From: a virus
Length of the DNA: 44,214 nucleotides
IMG/VR virus record: IMGVR_UViG_3300011563_000001
Span: 1-44,214 of that record
Strand: one strand, 5' to 3'
The notes beneath the pieces were generated by a model that did no database searches, had not been told where the DNA came from, and worked only from the letters and a program-made list of their open reading frames with translations. Made by a program: the position numbers and the translations under genes. This document shows positions 1 to 44,214 of this stretch, one piece after another (position 1 is the stretch's first letter; each line of letters starts with the position of its first letter).

Positions 1-115
1 CAAGGTTTTTAAAATCCCTCCATCTCCGTATTTTACGATATTAGTTAATGATATCTTACTTAAAAACCTTGATAAATCAGGGTTTTTTATTTTATATAAA
101 ACTTCTAATTATGGT
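1..115. repeat. Left copy of a perfect 115-bp direct repeat, identical to 44100-44214. It is either an attL-like boundary or a circular-assembly overlap.
   Basis: Positions 1-115 match 44100-44214 base for base. The integrase gene ends 76 bp inside it. Confidence 0.9.
62..87. promoter_or_regulatory. Candidate core-type recombination site. It also has the shape of a hairpin terminator.
   Basis: Inverted half-sites AAAAACCTTG and CAGGGTTTTT flank a 6-bp spacer ATAAAT, with one G-T wobble, and are followed by a T-run. A third copy of the motif, CAAGGTTTTT, lies at 1-10. Confidence 0.3.
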
Positions 116-190: not shown

Positions 191-1264
191 CTATAAATTA
201 TCCATGACATTTCTGAGTTTAATCGTTTCTTCTTTTTCTACTTCTTCTAACAAATGGCTGTATATTGATAGGGTAGTAGTCACATTAGCATGACCTAATC
301 TTTTACTTATATAATGAATAGACACACCTTTATGCAATAGGTAAGAACAATGCGTATGCCTTATACTATGCAACGTATATGCGCCAATTTGATGTTCCAA
401 GCAAAATTTATTTAATACTTTGGTCACGGCATTATTTGTTATTAAACCATTTCCAGTATTGAATATGTGACCATCTATTTGTATTGGTCGTTCTTTTAGA
501 CTGTTTAATAAATATTTCATCTCTTTATCGGTAATAGGGATAGTCCTATCAGATGTTTCTGTTTTTGTACCAGGTAAATGTATCATATTATCTTTCTTTA
601 TTAGATCGCTATATTTTAATTTCTGTACTTCTCCAAATCTCGCACCCGTAATTATCAAAATATATATGAACAGATATGATAGTTCTTTTCTACCTGTTAC
701 ATAATCTTTCAAATTAGTATAATTATCTATCGTCATAAATTTAGTACTTTCATGCTGTGATGATTTAGTACCATATGGCTTAGCTTTATATGTTGGGTCT
801 TTATATATTAGCCCTTCACTAACTGCATCTTGTAATGCTGCTCTTAAACATAAATGTAATTTTTGTACACTATTTGTAGTTCGTCCTCCTTTTCGTGGAG
901 TTAAATATAAACCTTCACCATATTCTTTAAGTAGTTCTCTATATTTCAACTGTGTTAATTTATTAATAGGTAAGTCACCAAACTTTTCTTCAAATACGTC
1001 TATAGAAGATTTATAACGTAACATAGATTTCTCTGATATCTGTCCTTCTTTATTAACACTTAACCAACTATTGTAATAATCTACAAAAGGAACATCATTT
1101 GTTAAATCAAAACCTTTTGTTAATTGATTGTACAATTCATTACCTTTTTCAGTTGCTTCTCTTTTAGTCAAAAATCCACCTTTTCGATAACGATTTCCAT
1201 CATACCTGAAATCATATTGCCATTTTTTACCTCGTTTACTTATATTCATTATGTCACTCCTCAA
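191..1264 (-). CDS. int: Tyrosine recombinase / phage integrase
   Basis: 357 aa. It has box I (TGARFGE), box II (HSIRHTHCSYLL) and the C-terminal LGHANVTTTLSIYSH with the catalytic Tyr. An N-terminal SAM-like/arm-binding region is present. The gene sits at the edge of the element. Confidence 0.95.
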   Translation of the reverse strand: MRSDIMNISKRGKKWQYDFRYDGNRYRKGGFLTKREATEKGNELYNQLTKGFDLTNDVPFVDYYNSWLSVNKEGQISEKSMLRYKSSIDVFEEKFGDLPINKLTQLKYRELLKEYGEGLYLTPRKGGRTTNSVQKLHLCLRAALQDAVSEGLIYKDPTYKAKPYGTKSSQHESTKFMTIDNYTNLKDYVTGRKELSYLFIYILIITGARFGEVQKLKYSDLIKKDNMIHLPGTKTETSDRTIPITDKEMKYLLNSLKERPIQIDGHIFNTGNGLITNNAVTKVLNKFCLEHQIGAYTLHSIRHTHCSYLLHKGVSIHYISKRLGHANVTTTLSIYSHLLEEVEKEETIKLRNVMDNL

Positions 1265-4442: not shown

Positions 4443-4609
4443 AATATATCACTTTAACAATGTTCCTAGTACTAGAGTTCTTCATCATCGCAGCGTTTAG
4501 CGTAACACCGTTTGAACATTCATTCCTATTCTGGTTGCTCACAGTGTTGTTATTCGAAACATGGGACTTATTAAAAGAAAACGAAAAAAAGAACCATAGC
4601 GCCAACTAG
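4439..4609 (+). CDS. Small two-TM membrane protein (56 aa), below the ORF-track length cutoff
   Basis: Its start overlaps the upstream stop (ATGA). The translation is MKYITLTMFLVLEFFIIAAFSVTPFEHSFLFWLLTVLLFETWDLLKENEKKNHSAN. Confidence 0.5.
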   Translation: MKYITLTMFLVLEFFIIAAFSVTPFEHSFLFWLLTVLLFETWDLLKENEKKNHSAN

Positions 4610-4672
4610 GGTTCGAGCGAATTAAAATATATACAACTAAACAATACAACTAAATATAGGAGGACGTCAAGT

Positions 4673-4930
4673 ATGGATAAAACAAGACTTGTAAATTTAG
4701 CTAGTGATTTACTAATAAAAATTGCACATTCTGACTTAGAAATAAAATTGGAATTCAGAAATTATGATGGTGGAGAACTAGGTTTTAACCTCGTTCATTT
4801 TGATGATAGATACGAAGACGGTTGTTACACTTTACACATTTATCAATGGCAAGACAAAGATATAATTATGAATTTGTTCGAACAAATGAAAGATGTCATA
4901 GCTGGCGAAAGGTTGATTACAAATGAGTGA
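4673..4930 (+). CDS. Hypothetical early protein
   Basis: 85-aa ORF with RBS AGGAGG 8 nt upstream. Confidence 0.7.
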   Translation: MDKTRLVNLASDLLIKIAHSDLEIKLEFRNYDGGELGFNLVHFDDRYEDGCYTLHIYQWQDKDIIMNLFEQMKDVIAGERLITNE

Positions 4931-5162
4931 AAAAGTAGAAACAACTTATTATATCAAAACACTTGAAGGGCTGTATCTGACAAACGTCCCTAATTCACCA
5001 GAAGAAGCGTCATATCATGCAAGTAGACCTAGAGAATACAAAGGGCTAGATACAATTAAAATCGACTGGGATAAGCATGTTGTAGTCGTTATTAAGACAT
5101 TCACTGATAAAACGTATCAAACTGTAAGAGTTTCTGATTTGGAGGAGATTGAGAATGGCTGA
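4923..5162 (+). CDS. Hypothetical early protein
   Basis: 79-aa ORF that overlaps the upstream stop and so appears translationally coupled. Confidence 0.65.
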   Translation: MSEKVETTYYIKTLEGLYLTNVPNSPEEASYHASRPREYKGLDTIKIDWDKHVVVVIKTFTDKTYQTVRVSDLEEIENG

Positions 5163-5802
5163 AAAACTAAACTTATTTCAAAAAATAGCTGATGTAAAAG
5201 CTAACATAGATGGATTCACTAAAGATACAGAAGGTTACAAATACAAATACGTTAGTGGATCACAAGTATTACACAGTATTAGGAACAAAATGGAAGAACA
5301 TAATCTATTGTTTGTTCCTCATATAAAAAATGCACATTATCAAGAAATTGAGGTTCTAGTTAAAGGACAAAAGAAACCAAACATAATAGTATCACTAGAT
5401 TTAATTTATACGTGGATAGATGCAGACAACCCAACAGATAGATTTGAGATACCGTTCTACGCAATAGGGCATCAAGATGATGCAAGTAAAGCGTTAGGTA
5501 CAGCACTAACTTATTCAGAAAGATATTTATTGATGAAACAATTCAATATACCAACCGATGAAGATGACGCAGATGCAAAACAAAAACGTGAAACATACGC
5601 ACCTAAAGCTAAACCTGAACAAATTAAAAACCTACAAGAAAAAATTAAACAAGCAGTTGAAATTGGTGGAGAAGATGCAACTGAACAAAAAGTTATGCAA
5701 TGGCTAAAAATTAGCGATTACGACACAGTAACGGAGGCGCAAATTAACCCAATGATTAAGCGATTGAATGACTTAATCAGTAGTAAACGAGGTGGAAAGT
5801 GA
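5155..5802 (+). CDS. ERF-family single-strand annealing recombinase
   Basis: The ATG at 5155 lies 7 nt after GGAGGAG. The motifs YKYKYVSGSQV and ALGTALTYSERYLLMKQFNI resemble the ERF core. The C-terminal tail is acidic. Confidence 0.6.
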   Translation: MAEKLNLFQKIADVKANIDGFTKDTEGYKYKYVSGSQVLHSIRNKMEEHNLLFVPHIKNAHYQEIEVLVKGQKKPNIIVSLDLIYTWIDADNPTDRFEIPFYAIGHQDDASKALGTALTYSERYLLMKQFNIPTDEDDADAKQKRETYAPKAKPEQIKNLQEKIKQAVEIGGEDATEQKVMQWLKISDYDTVTEAQINPMIKRLNDLISSKRGGK

Positions 5803-6536
5803 TGGAAAAAATAAACATAGAAAATAATGGTTACGGCATAATTTTTAAATCATTAACAAGAAACCCGAATATAGATATAGAAGCTAAAGGTTTATTTTCT
5901 TATTTGACAACATATGCAGGTTCAAAAGATAACGCATATCCTAGTGTAGATTTAATTTGTCATGAATTGAATATATCTACTAAACGGTTTCAAAAGTATA
6001 GAAAGCAATTAGTTGAAGCTGGATATCTAAGTATCTCAAGAGAGAAATCATCTAATTTATACGGAAGAAATGTTTACACGTTATATCACGAACCTCGACA
6101 GGTACAAATTCGACCGGTCGAAAATGAAACGATGCAAATTGAATCGGTCGAAAATCTACCCACTAAGAATAACAGTACTAAGAATAACAGTATTAAGAAT
6201 AACATTAGTAAGAGAGACGACACGCAAAATTCGATAGATTATATAAATCATAACTTAGAAATGATAACAAGTCCTATGAAAATTCAAGAAATAGAATATC
6301 TAGTAAATGATATTAAAAATCAAAAGTTAGAGATTGTGAAAGTAGCTACAAACTATTGCAAACAAAATAAAAAAGGTATCAACTATTTAATCAAAGTGTT
6401 AACGAATTGGATAAATGAAGATATTGATACTAAAGAAAAAGCTGAAGCTAAAATACAACCTAAACAACTAAAAGCTAAATCAGATAACTTCGGAGATTTA
6501 AGACAAAAAATTCTAGGTGGTGTAAGTAATGACTGA
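5802..6536 (+). CDS. Replisome organiser / replication initiator (winged-HTH N-terminus, DnaD-like C-terminus)
   Basis: The segment YPSVDLICHELNISTKRFQKYRKQLVEAGYL is HTH-like. The gene lies upstream of the helicase and contains DNA iterons. Confidence 0.6.
   Translation: MEKINIENNGYGIIFKSLTRNPNIDIEAKGLFSYLTTYAGSKDNAYPSVDLICHELNISTKRFQKYRKQLVEAGYLSISREKSSNLYGRNVYTLYHEPRQVQIRPVENETMQIESVENLPTKNNSTKNNSIKNNISKRDDTQNSIDYINHNLEMITSPMKIQEIEYLVNDIKNQKLEIVKVATNYCKQNKKGINYLIKVLTNWINEDIDTKEKAEAKIQPKQLKAKSDNFGDLRQKILGGVSND
6105..6206. repeat. Iteron cluster inside the organiser gene; candidate replication origin
   Basis: A 22-bp repeat CAAATT-N6-CGGTCGAAAAT occurs at 6105-26 and 6135-56. Three tandem 15-mers ACTAAGAATAACAGT occur at 6162-76, 6177-91 and 6192-6206 (the last degenerate). 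A palindrome CGACCGGTCG lies at 6111-20. Confidence 0.5.
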
Positions 6537-41445: not shown

Positions 41446-42834
41446 ATGAAGACACAAGCAGAATCGGTTAAATACATCAATGCAATGGAAGGTACGTTTG
41501 TTGATTTTGATTTAGCGTATGGTTATCAATGTTATGATGTTGCTAACAAGTATTGGTATTATGTAACAGGTCGTAAGTTATATGGGTTATATGCTAAAGA
41601 CATACCTAAAGATAATAATTTCAAAGGTTATGCGACAGTGTATGAAAACAAACCGTCATTCTTGCCTTTGCCAGGTGATTTAGTTGTTTGGAATGGTAAT
41701 TACGGTGAAGGATGTGGACACGTTGCAGTTGTCACACAAGCGACCTTATCACAATTTCAAGTTATAGAGAATAATTGGCTTGGTGGTGGTTGGGTAAATG
41801 GTAAACCAGGTTGGGAAAAAGCAACTAGACGTTGGCATACATTTGATTTTCCTATGTGGTTTATTCGTCCACATTACGCTAAATCAACAACAGTTGTTAA
41901 GAAAGTGGCAAGTGTAGTTAAACCTAAAGTTAAAGCAACTAAAAAGAAATTTGTACTTGTTGCAGGTCATGGATATAACGATCCAGGCGCAGTTGGTAAT
42001 GGCACTAACGAACGTGACTTTATCCGTAAGAATATTATTGATAATGTGGCGAAATACTTACGTTCAGCAGGTCATACAGTAACGTTATACGATAAGAAAC
42101 AAGATATGTATCAAGATACTGCATACGGATATAATCGTGGTGATACGAAGAACTATGGGCTATACTGGGTTAAGAATAAACTTAAACCAGATGCTGTAAT
42201 AGAGTTTCATTTAGATAGCGCAGGTGCGAGTGCGAGTGGTGGTCACGTTATTAAAAATGCTTATGCAGCTGATAGTATAGATAAAGGTATACAAAAATCC
42301 TTAGAAGACACAGTAGGCACAATCAGAGGTATAACAACTAGAAATGACTTACTTAATGTCAACGTAGCATATAATCAAAATATTAACTATCGTTTAGTCG
42401 AGTTAGGGTTTATCACAAGTAAGAAAGATATGGACTATATCAAGAAGAACCTACAAGCATTTACTAAACGTATAGCTGAGGGTATTCATGGTAAGCCAAT
42501 AGGTGGTACGCCTGCAGGTAAAAGTAAAAAGACTACATGGAATTGGAAAGGTCGATTTACTGCGAACACAACTATTAAAGTAAGGAAGTCGGCAAGTTTA
42601 ACTGATGATAAAAATGTAGTAAATAAAGGTTCATGGATTAAAAAAGGTCAATGGATTGACTTCGTTCAATTAATAAAAGTTACAAAAGGTAAAAATAAAT
42701 ATTGGATGGCAAAATTTAAATTCCCAACTAACCCTAAATCAGGTTACTTCTATACTACATTAGGTGAAGTAACAGATAAAAACGAGAAAATTAAGAGTGA
42801 GAAAAAGTTGTACGGTAAAATTAAATGGAAGTAG
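41446..42834 (+). CDS. Endolysin: CHAP + amidase_3 (MurNAc-L-Ala amidase) + SH3b
   Basis: The CHAP motifs are YGYQCYDVANKYW and CGHVAVV. The amidase_3 motifs are VLVAGHGYNDPGAVGNGTNERDF and EFHLDS. The C-terminal region is SH3_5-like. Confidence 0.95.
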   Translation: MKTQAESVKYINAMEGTFVDFDLAYGYQCYDVANKYWYYVTGRKLYGLYAKDIPKDNNFKGYATVYENKPSFLPLPGDLVVWNGNYGEGCGHVAVVTQATLSQFQVIENNWLGGGWVNGKPGWEKATRRWHTFDFPMWFIRPHYAKSTTVVKKVASVVKPKVKATKKKFVLVAGHGYNDPGAVGNGTNERDFIRKNIIDNVAKYLRSAGHTVTLYDKKQDMYQDTAYGYNRGDTKNYGLYWVKNKLKPDAVIEFHLDSAGASASGGHVIKNAYAADSIDKGIQKSLEDTVGTIRGITTRNDLLNVNVAYNQNINYRLVELGFITSKKDMDYIKKNLQAFTKRIAEGIHGKPIGGTPAGKSKKTTWNWKGRFTANTTIKVRKSASLTDDKNVVNKGSWIKKGQWIDFVQLIKVTKGKNKYWMAKFKFPTNPKSGYFYTTLGEVTDKNEKIKSEKKLYGKIKWK

Positions 42835-42855: not shown

Positions 42856-42932
42856 AGCTATTGCTCGGTTACGACTGAACCGTCGTACATTGCAAAACCC
42901 TATCTAGCGGAAACTAGGTAGGGTTACTTTTT
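42856..42932 (+). ncRNA. Candidate small RNA of about 75-80 nt, or a structured 3' UTR
   Basis: It lies between the extended -10 at 42841-49 and the terminator at 42897-42932. It contains no ORF and has an internal hairpin CGGTT-N7-AACCG. Confidence 0.2.
42897..42932 (+). terminator. Rho-independent terminator of the lysis operon
   Basis: The stem is ACCCTATCTAG / CTAGGTAGGGT (one G-U pair) with loop CGGAAA, followed by TACTTTTT. Confidence 0.7.
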
Positions 42933-42986: not shown

Positions 42987-43208
42987 ATGTACATGCTATT
43001 TGAACATATATGGGATTATGAAAATTCGAAAACTAATGTAATATGCGTTAGTGAAAATAAAGAGAATATTACAAGCATTTTATCAAAATATAAATTCAAT
43101 AGAGTATTAGAATTTGAAGATAGAGTTATATATGAACTAGAAGATAGATATTTCATACTAGTTCATACCATTAAAGATAATTACCTAAAAAAAGAGGTAG
43201 TTATATGA
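42987..43208 (+). CDS. Hypothetical accessory (moron-like) protein
   Basis: 73-aa ORF with its own promoter and a shared bidirectional terminator. Confidence 0.65.
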   Translation: MYMLFEHIWDYENSKTNVICVSENKENITSILSKYKFNRVLEFEDRVIYELEDRYFILVHTIKDNYLKKEVVI

Positions 43209-43243
43209 AGAAGTTGAAACATTAAAGGTTCAGAAATAGTTAA

Positions 43244-43271
43244 ACCCACCAATTAAGGTGGGTCTTTTTTT
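43244..43271. terminator. Bidirectional terminator between convergent accessory genes
   Basis: The stem is ACCCACC / GGTGGGT with loop AATTAA, followed by CTTTTTTT on the plus strand. Confidence 0.7.
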
Positions 43272-43545
43272 ATATCAGTCCTTCACGTTCGACTTCATTT
43301 AATTTATGCATATTAACTAAAAAATCGTGTTCTCCAGATTTTTGAATAGGCATTTCAATTATTCCCGAATACAGAAAAACTTGTAGAATATTAGAAACAT
43401 CTTTGTCATCATGCCCTTTTTGATAGACTCTGTCTTTCAAATCTTGAATACTCGTTATTTCTTCTCTAAATATTGAATTAGTAATAACCTTTACAACTTC
43501 TTTATCGTAATTGTGTATTTCCCGATTGATTTTTATCCCCTCCAT
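43270..43545 (-). CDS. Hypothetical protein, second gene of the SOS-box operon
   Basis: 91-aa ORF beginning 9 bp after the YolD-like gene. No motif was recognised. Confidence 0.7.
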   Translation of the reverse strand: MEGIKINREIHNYDKEVVKVITNSIFREEITSIQDLKDRVYQKGHDDKDVSNILQVFLYSGIIEMPIQKSGEHDFLVNMHKLNEVEREGLI

Positions 43546-43554
43546 ATTTCAATT

Positions 43555-43974
43555 CTACTCTATCCCCACAATACAATCCATACTCAACAATACTTTTTCT
43601 CCATTTTCTAATACCTCTAACTTATTACGCTCACTATCAAACTTATTTATCTCACACTCAATTATTTTGTAATAACCATTCTCCCAATACTTAATTGTAG
43701 CTGGCGGATCATAAAATAATTTCTGCGCTAACACATCGTTTAAATCACGTAATGCTAATTTATCGAACACAGGCTTATCTACTTTGTTTTGGTCTTCGAT
43801 AAAACCGTTAATCGTTTCATATTGTTGTGGCACACTAGCAAATGGTGCCCACTTAATCATGCCTCTACCTTTAGGAATGTTCTTATTGAGATATTCTTTA
43901 GGTATCTTGCGATAATCTGTTTCATACTTATAAGGCTCGGGCATACCAGGGTTAATGATTTTCAATTTAAACAC
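43555..43974 (-). CDS. YolD-like protein
   Basis: The core is GRGMIKWAPFASVPQQYE...VDKPVFDKLALRDLNDVL...IKYWENGYY...LSMDCIVGIE, which matches my memory of the YolD family pattern RGxIKWxPF. The likely start is the TTG at 43965, 6 nt after GAGGTG, rather than the GTG at 43974. Confidence 0.65.
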   Translation of the reverse strand: MFKLKIINPGMPEPYKYETDYRKIPKEYLNKNIPKGRGMIKWAPFASVPQQYETINGFIEDQNKVDKPVFDKLALRDLNDVLAQKLFYDPPATIKYWENGYYKIIECEINKFDSERNKLEVLENGEKVLLSMDCIVGIE

Positions 43975-43996
43975 CTCACGTATAATTTGTAGTTTT

Positions 43997-44026
43997 ATTA
44001 TACGAACAAATGTTCTGTTTTGTAAA
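43997..44026 (-). promoter_or_regulatory. Sigma-A promoter with an embedded LexA (Cheo) box
   Basis: On the minus strand: TTTACA (44021-26), an 18-nt spacer, TATAAT (43997-44002). The spacer contains GAACATTTGTTC, which reads CGAACAAATGTTCT on the plus strand at 44003-16 and abuts the -10 box. Confidence 0.65.
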
Positions 44027-44099: not shown

Positions 44100-44214
44100 C
44101 AAGGTTTTTAAAATCCCTCCATCTCCGTATTTTACGATATTAGTTAATGATATCTTACTTAAAAACCTTGATAAATCAGGGTTTTTTATTTTATATAAAA
44201 CTTCTAATTATGGT
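44100..44214. repeat. Right copy of the perfect 115-bp direct repeat (attR-like boundary or assembly overlap)
   Basis: Identical to 1-115. Confidence 0.9.

Follow-up and report, generated by a model that had tools for sequence, protein, structure and literature searches.

A solo yolD gene under a LexA-type operator, and the variable slot behind it, in a temperate Mammaliicoccus phage

The yolD gene and its product

We analyzed a locus near the right end of the IMG/VR virus record IMGVR_UViG_3300011563_000001, which represents a temperate siphophage of the Mammaliicoccus (formerly Staphylococcus) sciuri group. The whole stretch of 44,214 nucleotides (nt) is referred to below as the window. On the minus strand the locus comprises a promoter with a LexA-type operator in its spacer, a yolD gene, a second open reading frame (ORF) of 91 amino acids (aa) and a hairpin terminator; all features are collected in Table 1. 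A first-pass annotation based on the sequence alone had described a near-consensus promoter, a LexA-type box beside its -10 hexamer, an ORF with a YolD-like core, a motif-less 91-aa ORF 9 bp further on and no polymerase gene. All of these elements were recovered in the places assigned to them, and the polymerase searches described below returned nothing.

The identity of the first gene is clear. Its maximal ORF matches the Pfam family YolD (PF08863) with E = 1.3e-15; the score of 57.7 bits exceeds the cut-off of 27.5, and residues 49-139 align with positions 3-94 of the 94-position profile. The ORF also matches phrog_3352, and its close homologues carry the NCBI name ‘YolD-like family protein’. 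The probable translation start is TTG 43965, giving a protein of 136 aa, because this codon has a GAGGTG Shine-Dalgarno sequence (43977-43972) 6 nt ahead of it, MK[IV]INP opens the homologues and gene callers also give 136 aa. The GTG that opens the maximal ORF falls inside the Shine-Dalgarno sequence itself. Ahead of the domain, the family motif RGMIKW(A/Q)PF is intact in the window YolD (RGMIKWAPF, GRGMIKWAPFAS), and GRGMIKWAPFAS aligns with the corresponding motif of chromosomal, polymerase-adjacent and SPbeta YolDs.

The AlphaFold2 (AF2) model of YolD has a predicted local distance difference test score (pLDDT) of 75 overall and about 86-88 in the C-terminal part. The model shows two helices and a five-stranded small beta-barrel (residues 91-138). 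This C-terminal barrel is SH3-like, as described for YolD by Timinskas and Venclovas (2019). A search of the protein against PDB sequences gave no match.

An additional feature of Staphylococcaceae YolDs is a near-invariant N-terminal extension of ~30 aa (ETDYRxIPxxYLNxxIP) that precedes RGMIKWAPF and corresponds to residues ~10-35 of the window protein (43870-43945). In the alignment, it is not present in polymerase-adjacent YolDs or in SPbeta YolD. The extension is predicted to be disordered and could serve as a docking motif.

Table 1. Features of the window
Feature	Position	Strand	Remarks
yolD, maximal ORF	43555-43974	minus	139 aa from GTG 43974
91-aa ORF	43270-43545	minus	same orientation as yolD, 9 nt past the yolD stop
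sigma-70-type promoter, -35 TTTACA	44026-44021	minus	18-nt spacer
sigma-70-type promoter, -10 TATAAT	44002-43997	minus	
LexA operator (Cheo/SOS box)	44003-44016		CGAACAAATGTTCT on the plus strand, AGAACATTTGTTCG on the minus strand
Hairpin terminator	43242-43265	both strands scanned	core CCCACC-AATTAA-GGTGGG at 43245-43262
Terminal direct repeat	44100-44214 (= 1-115)		overlap of circular assembly; exact 115-nt identity
Hairpin inside terminal repeat	44161-44186 (= 62-87)		terminator scan
Tyrosine integrase (int)	191-1264		
DUF4352 protein gene			between int and repressor
Repressor, 112 aa	2357-2695	minus	helix-turn-helix (HTH) domain only
cro-like gene			then AntA antirepressor, then replication and morphogenesis genes
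Holin			then lysin
CHAP-amidase-SH3b lysin	41446-42834		
Lysin terminator	42896-42925		
73-aa ORF	42987-43208	plus	between lysin terminator and shared hairpin; convergent with yolD operon

The promoter and its LexA operator

In a consensus scan, the yolD promoter matches 11 of 12 consensus positions. The LexA box occupies the spacer between the -35 and -10 hexamers and abuts the latter, so that the operator overlaps the core promoter. Compared with CGAAC-N4-GTTCG, CGAACAAATGTTCT matches at 13 of 14 positions, including an exact GAAC-N4-GTTC core. This core occurs once in the window, within CGAACAAATGTTCT. Taken by itself the single occurrence is weak evidence, since at least one GAAC-N4-GTTC was present in 29 of 100 shuffles of the window.

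The decisive evidence comes from other genomes. We surveyed the loci of 111 YolD relatives (31 viral and 80 genomic; individual loci are referred to by L-numbers) and took a census of operators in the 95 Staphylococcaceae yolD loci with enough upstream sequence. An exact GAAC-N4-GTTC precedes yolD in 82 of them, and in 78 of the 95 the box abuts a -10-like hexamer. The background in the rest of the same loci is one such core per ~60 kb, which corresponds to 0.007 expected per upstream region. It is because of this census, and not because of the count in the window, that we judge the yolD operator to be genuine. The recurrent layout (-35, 5 nt, box, 1 nt, TATAAT) is kept both in prophages, beside lysin genes, and in two conserved chromosomal contexts. 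One of them is ppaC-(lactonase)-yolD-folD, found in the S. aureus complex, Salinicoccus, Jeotgalicoccus and Aliicoccus; the other is speE-speB-MFS-yolD in Macrococcus. Judged by this conservation across genomes, the operator is to be regarded as real because it is ancestral.

Published data on orthologues point in the same direction. The 14-mer CGAACAAATGTTCT agrees in every letter with the sbcDC SOS box of S. aureus as quoted in PMC11442139. According to Cirz 2007, as cited in later papers, both yolD and umuC of S. aureus possess a LexA site and respond to SOS induction; Timinskas and Venclovas (2019) note the same for yolD and uvrX of this species. The yolC/yolD promoter region of phage SPbeta is bound by LexA in vitro. 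A Cheo box, CGAACAAATATTCG, is also found upstream of recA of M. lentus. Based on the operator conservation and the published orthologue data, it is very likely that the operon is repressed by LexA and induced by SOS in this host.

Some loci have an additional ORF between the LexA-box promoter and yolD. An ORF of 108-111 aa occupies this position in the 134-kb M. sciuri phages (phi6255; L003, 4401-4727) and in M. sciuri and M. fleurettii chromosomal loci (L071, 4679-5014; L045). In a separate prophage group (L021-L039, with a 143-aa YolD), to which megablast gave no match, the leader ORF is of 85-88 aa.

yolD without an adjacent polymerase

A tblastn search of the window with Y-family polymerases found nothing below E = 0.1, and in none of the fetched Staphylococcaceae loci is there a Y-family polymerase within ~5 kb of yolD. 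The first-pass annotation took the orphan state of yolD as a departure from the norm. It turns out to be the norm in this family: a solo, LexA-boxed yolD is standard across Staphylococcaceae and has been published for S. aureus. A polymerase gene directly upstream of yolD was seen only in distant loci of Bacilli or Erysipelotrichales type (L109-L122). Table S3 of Timinskas and Venclovas (2019) lists Macrococcus, Salinicoccus and S. aureus as ‘UvrX + YolD SPLIT’, and according to the same study yolD and a UvrX-type polymerase co-occur in genomes with three exceptions in 207 cases. Solo yolD genes are also found on mobile elements, with 34 records of phages and 753 of plasmids; the former include the annotated ‘YolD-like’ genes of phi879, phiRS7 and staphylococcal SPbeta-like phages.

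In Mammaliicoccus species, yolD also occurs on the chromosome away from any phage context (L071, L047 and L049). In a neighbour-joining tree, the YolDs of the window and phi879 fall inside the Mammaliicoccus chromosomal clade, nearest to the M. sciuri chromosomal copy. The TTTACA variant of the -35 hexamer is typical of yolD in this genus and is present in both of these phage copies. On the strength of these comparisons, phage yolD most likely stems from a Mammaliicoccus chromosome and was captured along with the LexA-repressed promoter that it had there. Among phage copies the gene shows dN/dS of 0.06-0.10 at dS of 0.7-1.0, indicating that the YolD protein is kept by purifying selection.

yolD as a putative SOS-induced aid to the host polymerase

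We favor the view that the locus is a phage copy of the SOS-regulon gene yolD, and that its product acts as an accessory factor for a UvrX-like translesion polymerase of the host. We put the probability of this reading at roughly 60%. An accessory role toward the host error-prone polymerase was one of several options raised in the first-pass annotation, and it appears to be the best supported of them. In a lysogen, host LexA bound to the spacer operator would block RNA polymerase. Upon DNA damage, activated RecA would trigger LexA self-cleavage, and the operon would be transcribed. The resulting 136-aa YolD, with its conserved and probably disordered N-terminal region that includes RGMIKWAPF and with its C-terminal barrel, is proposed to serve as a small accessory subunit of the separately encoded Y-family polymerase of the host. 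Lesion bypass and mutagenesis would then be raised at a time when damaged host and prophage DNA needs to be copied. Any cargo gene placed between the yolD stop and the terminator would borrow the SOS-inducible transcription. That solo yolD genes with an intact operator are under strong selection on prophages and plasmids suggests a selectable activity in trans.

Several points weigh against this reading. Foldseek matched the YolD model to generic small barrels (Hfq, Tudor and designed SH3, E ~0.01), and UmuD' was absent from the top matches. Since M. sciuri has its own chromosomal yolD (L071), it is not obvious what a second copy on a phage would bring. The host UvrX-like polymerase is assumed; the supplement of Timinskas and Venclovas (2019) lists no Mammaliicoccus. 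For no YolD has action with a Y-family polymerase been demonstrated experimentally; deletion of yqjX in B. subtilis lowered UV mutagenesis by only ~1.5-fold, and a 2024 review of the S. aureus SOS response rates the role of YolD as unproven. Finally, relatives of the 91-aa protein adjoin yolD in two arrangements in two genera, which hints at something beyond random cargo.

A variable cargo slot closed by a recurrent hairpin

The yolD operon is located in the accessory slot that extends from the lysin gene to attP. The hairpin that closes the operon has a predicted folding energy of -17.5 kcal/mol (z = -3.85), occurs in a single copy in the window and is common to the convergent 73-aa ORF on the plus strand. 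Its earlier description as a bidirectional terminator stands in part: the hairpin is there, followed by a T-run that is weak on the minus strand, though good on the plus strand. The same hairpin ends the cargo slot in many Mammaliicoccus and Staphylococcus prophages, namely L001 (in two copies), L004, L005, L012, L013, L014, L043 and L051, and it may represent a recombination boundary for cassette exchange.

What lies downstream of phage yolD varies strongly, with at least eight unrelated cargos or none at all. The 91-aa protein of the window, or an 86-aa version of it, is shared with L004 and L131-L134. Elsewhere the slot holds a 166-aa membrane-anchored protein (phi879 and L043), membrane proteins of 252 aa (phi6255) and 177 aa (L013 and L019), a 389-aa SAP-domain protein (L016), proteins of 272 and 273 aa (L044 and L051) or a GNAT acetyltransferase (L045 and L071). 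In phi31, L012, L014 and L017 yolD is followed by the terminator alone. A relative of the 91-aa protein was detected in none of the 111 loci fetched through YolD, even with a broadened profile. YolD and the 91-aa protein had been proposed to form a two-gene module, and a survey for conservation of the pair without a polymerase had been suggested; among the YolD-fetched loci the pair is not conserved, and the module does not hold in that form. From the gene content of these loci, the 91-aa gene is most likely an interchangeable cargo and not a fixed partner.

The variability of the slot suggests another reading, in which the main value of the locus is its LexA-controlled promoter, yolD is a conserved leader, and the swappable genes are the payload. 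Such a payload (membrane-anchored, SAP-domain, GNAT or acidic 91-aa proteins), produced as SOS sets in, could act in exclusion, defence, counter-defence or host manipulation. The cargos are bounded by the conserved promoter-yolD unit on one side and the recurrent hairpin on the other, several of them have N-terminal transmembrane segments, and the 91-aa family is also found in the accessory region of islands related to S. aureus pathogenicity islands (SaPIs), beside a T5orf172/DUF4041 gene. We nevertheless consider this reading unlikely. The strong purifying selection on yolD, and its solitary occurrence with the terminator directly after it in the four loci named above, imply that it is more than a leader. 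Moreover, PADLOC matches none of the cargos, and in Staphylococcus prophages that carry a family member divergent from yolD a second LexA box was not found between the two genes.

The 91-aa protein family

The 91-aa protein has no match in Pfam, PHROG, PADLOC or PDB sequence profiles. A HMMER scan of 1.84 billion representatives returned 13 relatives, none with a Pfam domain; grouped at 90% identity the family amounts to 11 clusters, and at 50% identity it has 13 representatives. Its AF2 model (pLDDT 85) has a winged-helix-like fold, for which Foldseek against PDB and BFVD gave generic winged-helix matches at E >= 0.03 and nothing specific. The isoelectric point (pI) of the window protein is 5.3, and all family members are acidic (pI 4.5-5.8). 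The protein more likely binds another protein than DNA.

Compared with its counterpart in L004, the gene has a dN/dS of 0.41 and thus evolves faster than yolD. The usual start of the family is Met6, preceded by GGAGG 8 nt upstream; in the window this codon is ATC (43530-43528). The remaining start is the upstream ATG at 43545, which has a poor Shine-Dalgarno sequence. Expression of the window copy may therefore be impaired.

Might YolD and this small acidic protein still form a two-protein unit, for example one in which the latter modulates YolD, the translesion polymerase or RecA/LexA? Family members 27-51% identical stand in tandem with yolD in Mammaliicoccus prophages that have different lysins (the window, L004 and L131-L134). 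Distant members (34-40% identical) lie divergently beside yolD in the Staphylococcus prophages L217-L219 and L224, and the acidic character of the whole family is unusual for a DNA-binding winged helix. Yet the result for the YolD-fetched loci speaks against a fixed unit, as does the loss of the usual start codon in the window. The family also occurs without yolD, in SaPI-like islands, in elements with an archaeo-eukaryotic primase (AEP) and in M. lentus remnants, and in M. vitulinus a member is retained beside a yolD pseudogene. The adjacency may be merely positional, because both yolD and the 91-aa family are confined to the short slot between lysin and att. We thus hold a two-protein unit to be very unlikely.

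A broader version would join the two preceding ideas: the whole arrangement of operator, yolD, slot and terminator would be a so far undescribed SOS-timed expression platform of Mammaliicoccus and Staphylococcus prophages, and the acidic family would be a dedicated partner or modulator of YolD, the polymerase or RecA/LexA. If this were true, mobile elements would actively adjust the SOS mutagenesis of their host, or exploit it for signalling between a phage and its satellite. We consider it decidedly unlikely, and retain the reading of yolD as an SOS-controlled accessory gene with an exchangeable neighbor.

Homologues 52-54% identical to the 91-aa protein are found in the accessory region of the 15-kb SaPI-like islands L128-L130 (e.g. 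at 3480-3755 of L130). These islands encode a SAPI family protein, TerS and a DUF927 primase, and the T5orf172/DUF4041 gene adjoins the homologue; neither yolD nor a LexA box is present there. In L008 (M. lentus, near recA-rny, ~4500-6250) a DUF4352 gene adjoins a truncated 73-aa family member. A DUF4352 gene is typical of the left end of prophages and the 91-aa family of the right end, and the pair looks like the scar of a deleted prophage.

In the divergent arrangement (L217, 3431-4282; L224, 1569-2457), an intergenic region of ~160 bp with the LexA box of yolD separates the two genes. This region was found to hold no second box, such as one for the divergent 93-aa gene of L217. YolC of SPbeta, which is likewise divergent from yolD and shares its SOS boxes, was tried as a relative of the 91-aa protein and rejected: its N terminus is a signal or transmembrane segment, and it shows no resemblance.

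Genome organization and the immunity switch

The ends of the window (1-115 and 44100-44214) form an exact 115-bp direct repeat, which identifies it as a phage genome of 44,099 bp that was assembled as a circle, and not as a prophage with host flanks. The nearest records across the yolD region are the M. sciuri phages phi879 and phi31. As anticipated, the operon comes to lie near int after circularization, with ~264 bp between the yolD -35 box and the int stop codon. The hairpin inside the repeat probably ends int transcripts and keeps read-through away from the yolD promoter. The window was found to contain no tRNA genes. The 73-aa ORF next to the operon has no match in Pfam, PHROG or PADLOC and is counted as another accessory gene.

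It had been noted that the phage repressor lacks a self-cleavage domain, and an HTH domain is indeed all that was detected in the 112-aa protein. Its first 73 residues are ~80% identical to the HTH of S24-type CI repressors of the S. aureus phi11/29/37 type, and a short tail replaces the peptidase domain of the S24 CI type. Full-length relatives (46%) are from Streptococcus phages. This raised the idea of an SOS-sensing switch, in which the LexA-controlled operon would be an antirepressor of the Tum/Gifsy type that inactivates the 112-aa repressor. The window has features that such a system would show: the repressor has no peptidase domain, the sole LexA box of the genome is at this operon, outside the immunity region, and the 91-aa protein is small and acidic, as are some antirepressors.

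We compared the repressor type with the presence of the cassette across phages, since the left ends of the prophages lie outside the 10-kb locus flanks; the exact repressor was not found on record. The module does not track non-cleavable repressors among related phages. The same promoter-yolD cassette is present in phages with a Peptidase_S24 repressor, namely phi879 (96 bits), phiRS7 and L217, and in phi31, which has an ImmR/ImmA-like pair (an HTH protein and an M78 match below the Pfam cut-off). On a contig whose short repressor is 62% identical, the cargo behind yolD is a different one, of 177 aa, and the same promoter serves chromosomal yolD throughout the family. Because S24 phages, phi31, the short-repressor contig and chromosomal loci all share promoter-yolD, the cassette is independent of the immunity switch. 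In addition, the phage already has an AntA-family antirepressor after cro, and 91-aa relatives in SaPI-like islands have no LexA box. The switch is thus highly improbable, and the reading of yolD as an aid to the host polymerase is kept.

Novelty and significance

The YolD family, the split arrangement, LexA control and carriage by phages are already known, and in this respect the locus itself is ordinary. Modestly new are the family-wide conservation of the promoter with its operator in the spacer and the cargo slot, which is hypervariable and has a recurrent terminator as its boundary. To these we would add the sequence evidence that phage copies were captured from the Mammaliicoccus chromosome and, as far as the structural model goes, a narrow acidic family, winged-helix-like by prediction, that is common to prophage ends and SaPI-like satellites.

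YolD is the proposed Gram-positive counterpart of UmuD, and the 2024 review mentioned above considers its role in S. aureus unclear. Phage-borne copies of yolD offer a genetic handle on a possible role of YolD in driving SOS mutagenesis, and with it the evolution of antibiotic resistance, through the host UvrX/UmuC-like polymerase. The cargo slot after yolD is a place to seek genes that matter at prophage induction.

Comparison with known systems

The closest chromosomal counterpart is S. aureus yolD (SACOL1986 / SAOUHSC_02144), a member of the same family that is likewise solo and far from the UvrX/UmuC-like gene. Its promoter has a LexA box ending in T, CGAACATGTGTTCT, and the gene is SOS-induced according to Cirz 2007 as cited in later papers. 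The closely related S. schweitzeri locus L054 has the same -35/box/-10 layout as the window. S. aureus yolD differs in being chromosomal, in the ppaC...yolD context, ~47% identical at the protein level and without a trailing cargo slot, whereas the window copy resides on a phage, beside attP.

Among phages, three solo yolD genes have been annotated in the accessory region between lysin and integrase: those of phi879 (Gp55), phiRS7 (orf28) and an S. epidermidis SPbeta-like phage. The phi879 YolD is 91% identical to that of the window and has an identical promoter and operator. The differences are in the surroundings, with the 166-aa membrane-anchored protein downstream in phi879, the other orientation in phiRS7 and a repressor of S24 type in both. 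The yolD-uvrX (yolE) pair of Bacillus phage SPbeta is also phage-borne, with LexA-bound SOS boxes, and its YolD has the motif RGTIKW and the C-terminal domain in common with the window YolD. In SPbeta, however, the polymerase gene directly follows yolD, and the protein is ~23% identical and has no ~30-aa N-terminal extension.

In coliphage 186 (Tum) and in Gifsy-type antirepressor systems, a LexA-box promoter outside the immunity region serves a phage whose repressor cannot self-cleave. Unlike these, the window cassette does not follow the repressor type, and the gene that LexA would control in it has an orthologue among the SOS genes of the host.

The nearest functional parallel is HumD of phage P1, a solo UmuD' homologue that works with host UmuC (McLenigan 1999, as cited in later papers) and for which complementation has been demonstrated. 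HumD is a true UmuD' homologue of S24 fold, whereas YolD is unrelated to it in sequence and its activity is proposed. With no Pfam match of the window YolD to Peptidase_S24 (the UmuD' fold), and with generic barrel matches only, YolD is at most an analogue of HumD and not a member of its family. The arrangement is nevertheless alike: as P1 does with HumD, the window phage encodes the putative small subunit, here YolD, and not the catalytic Y-family polymerase.

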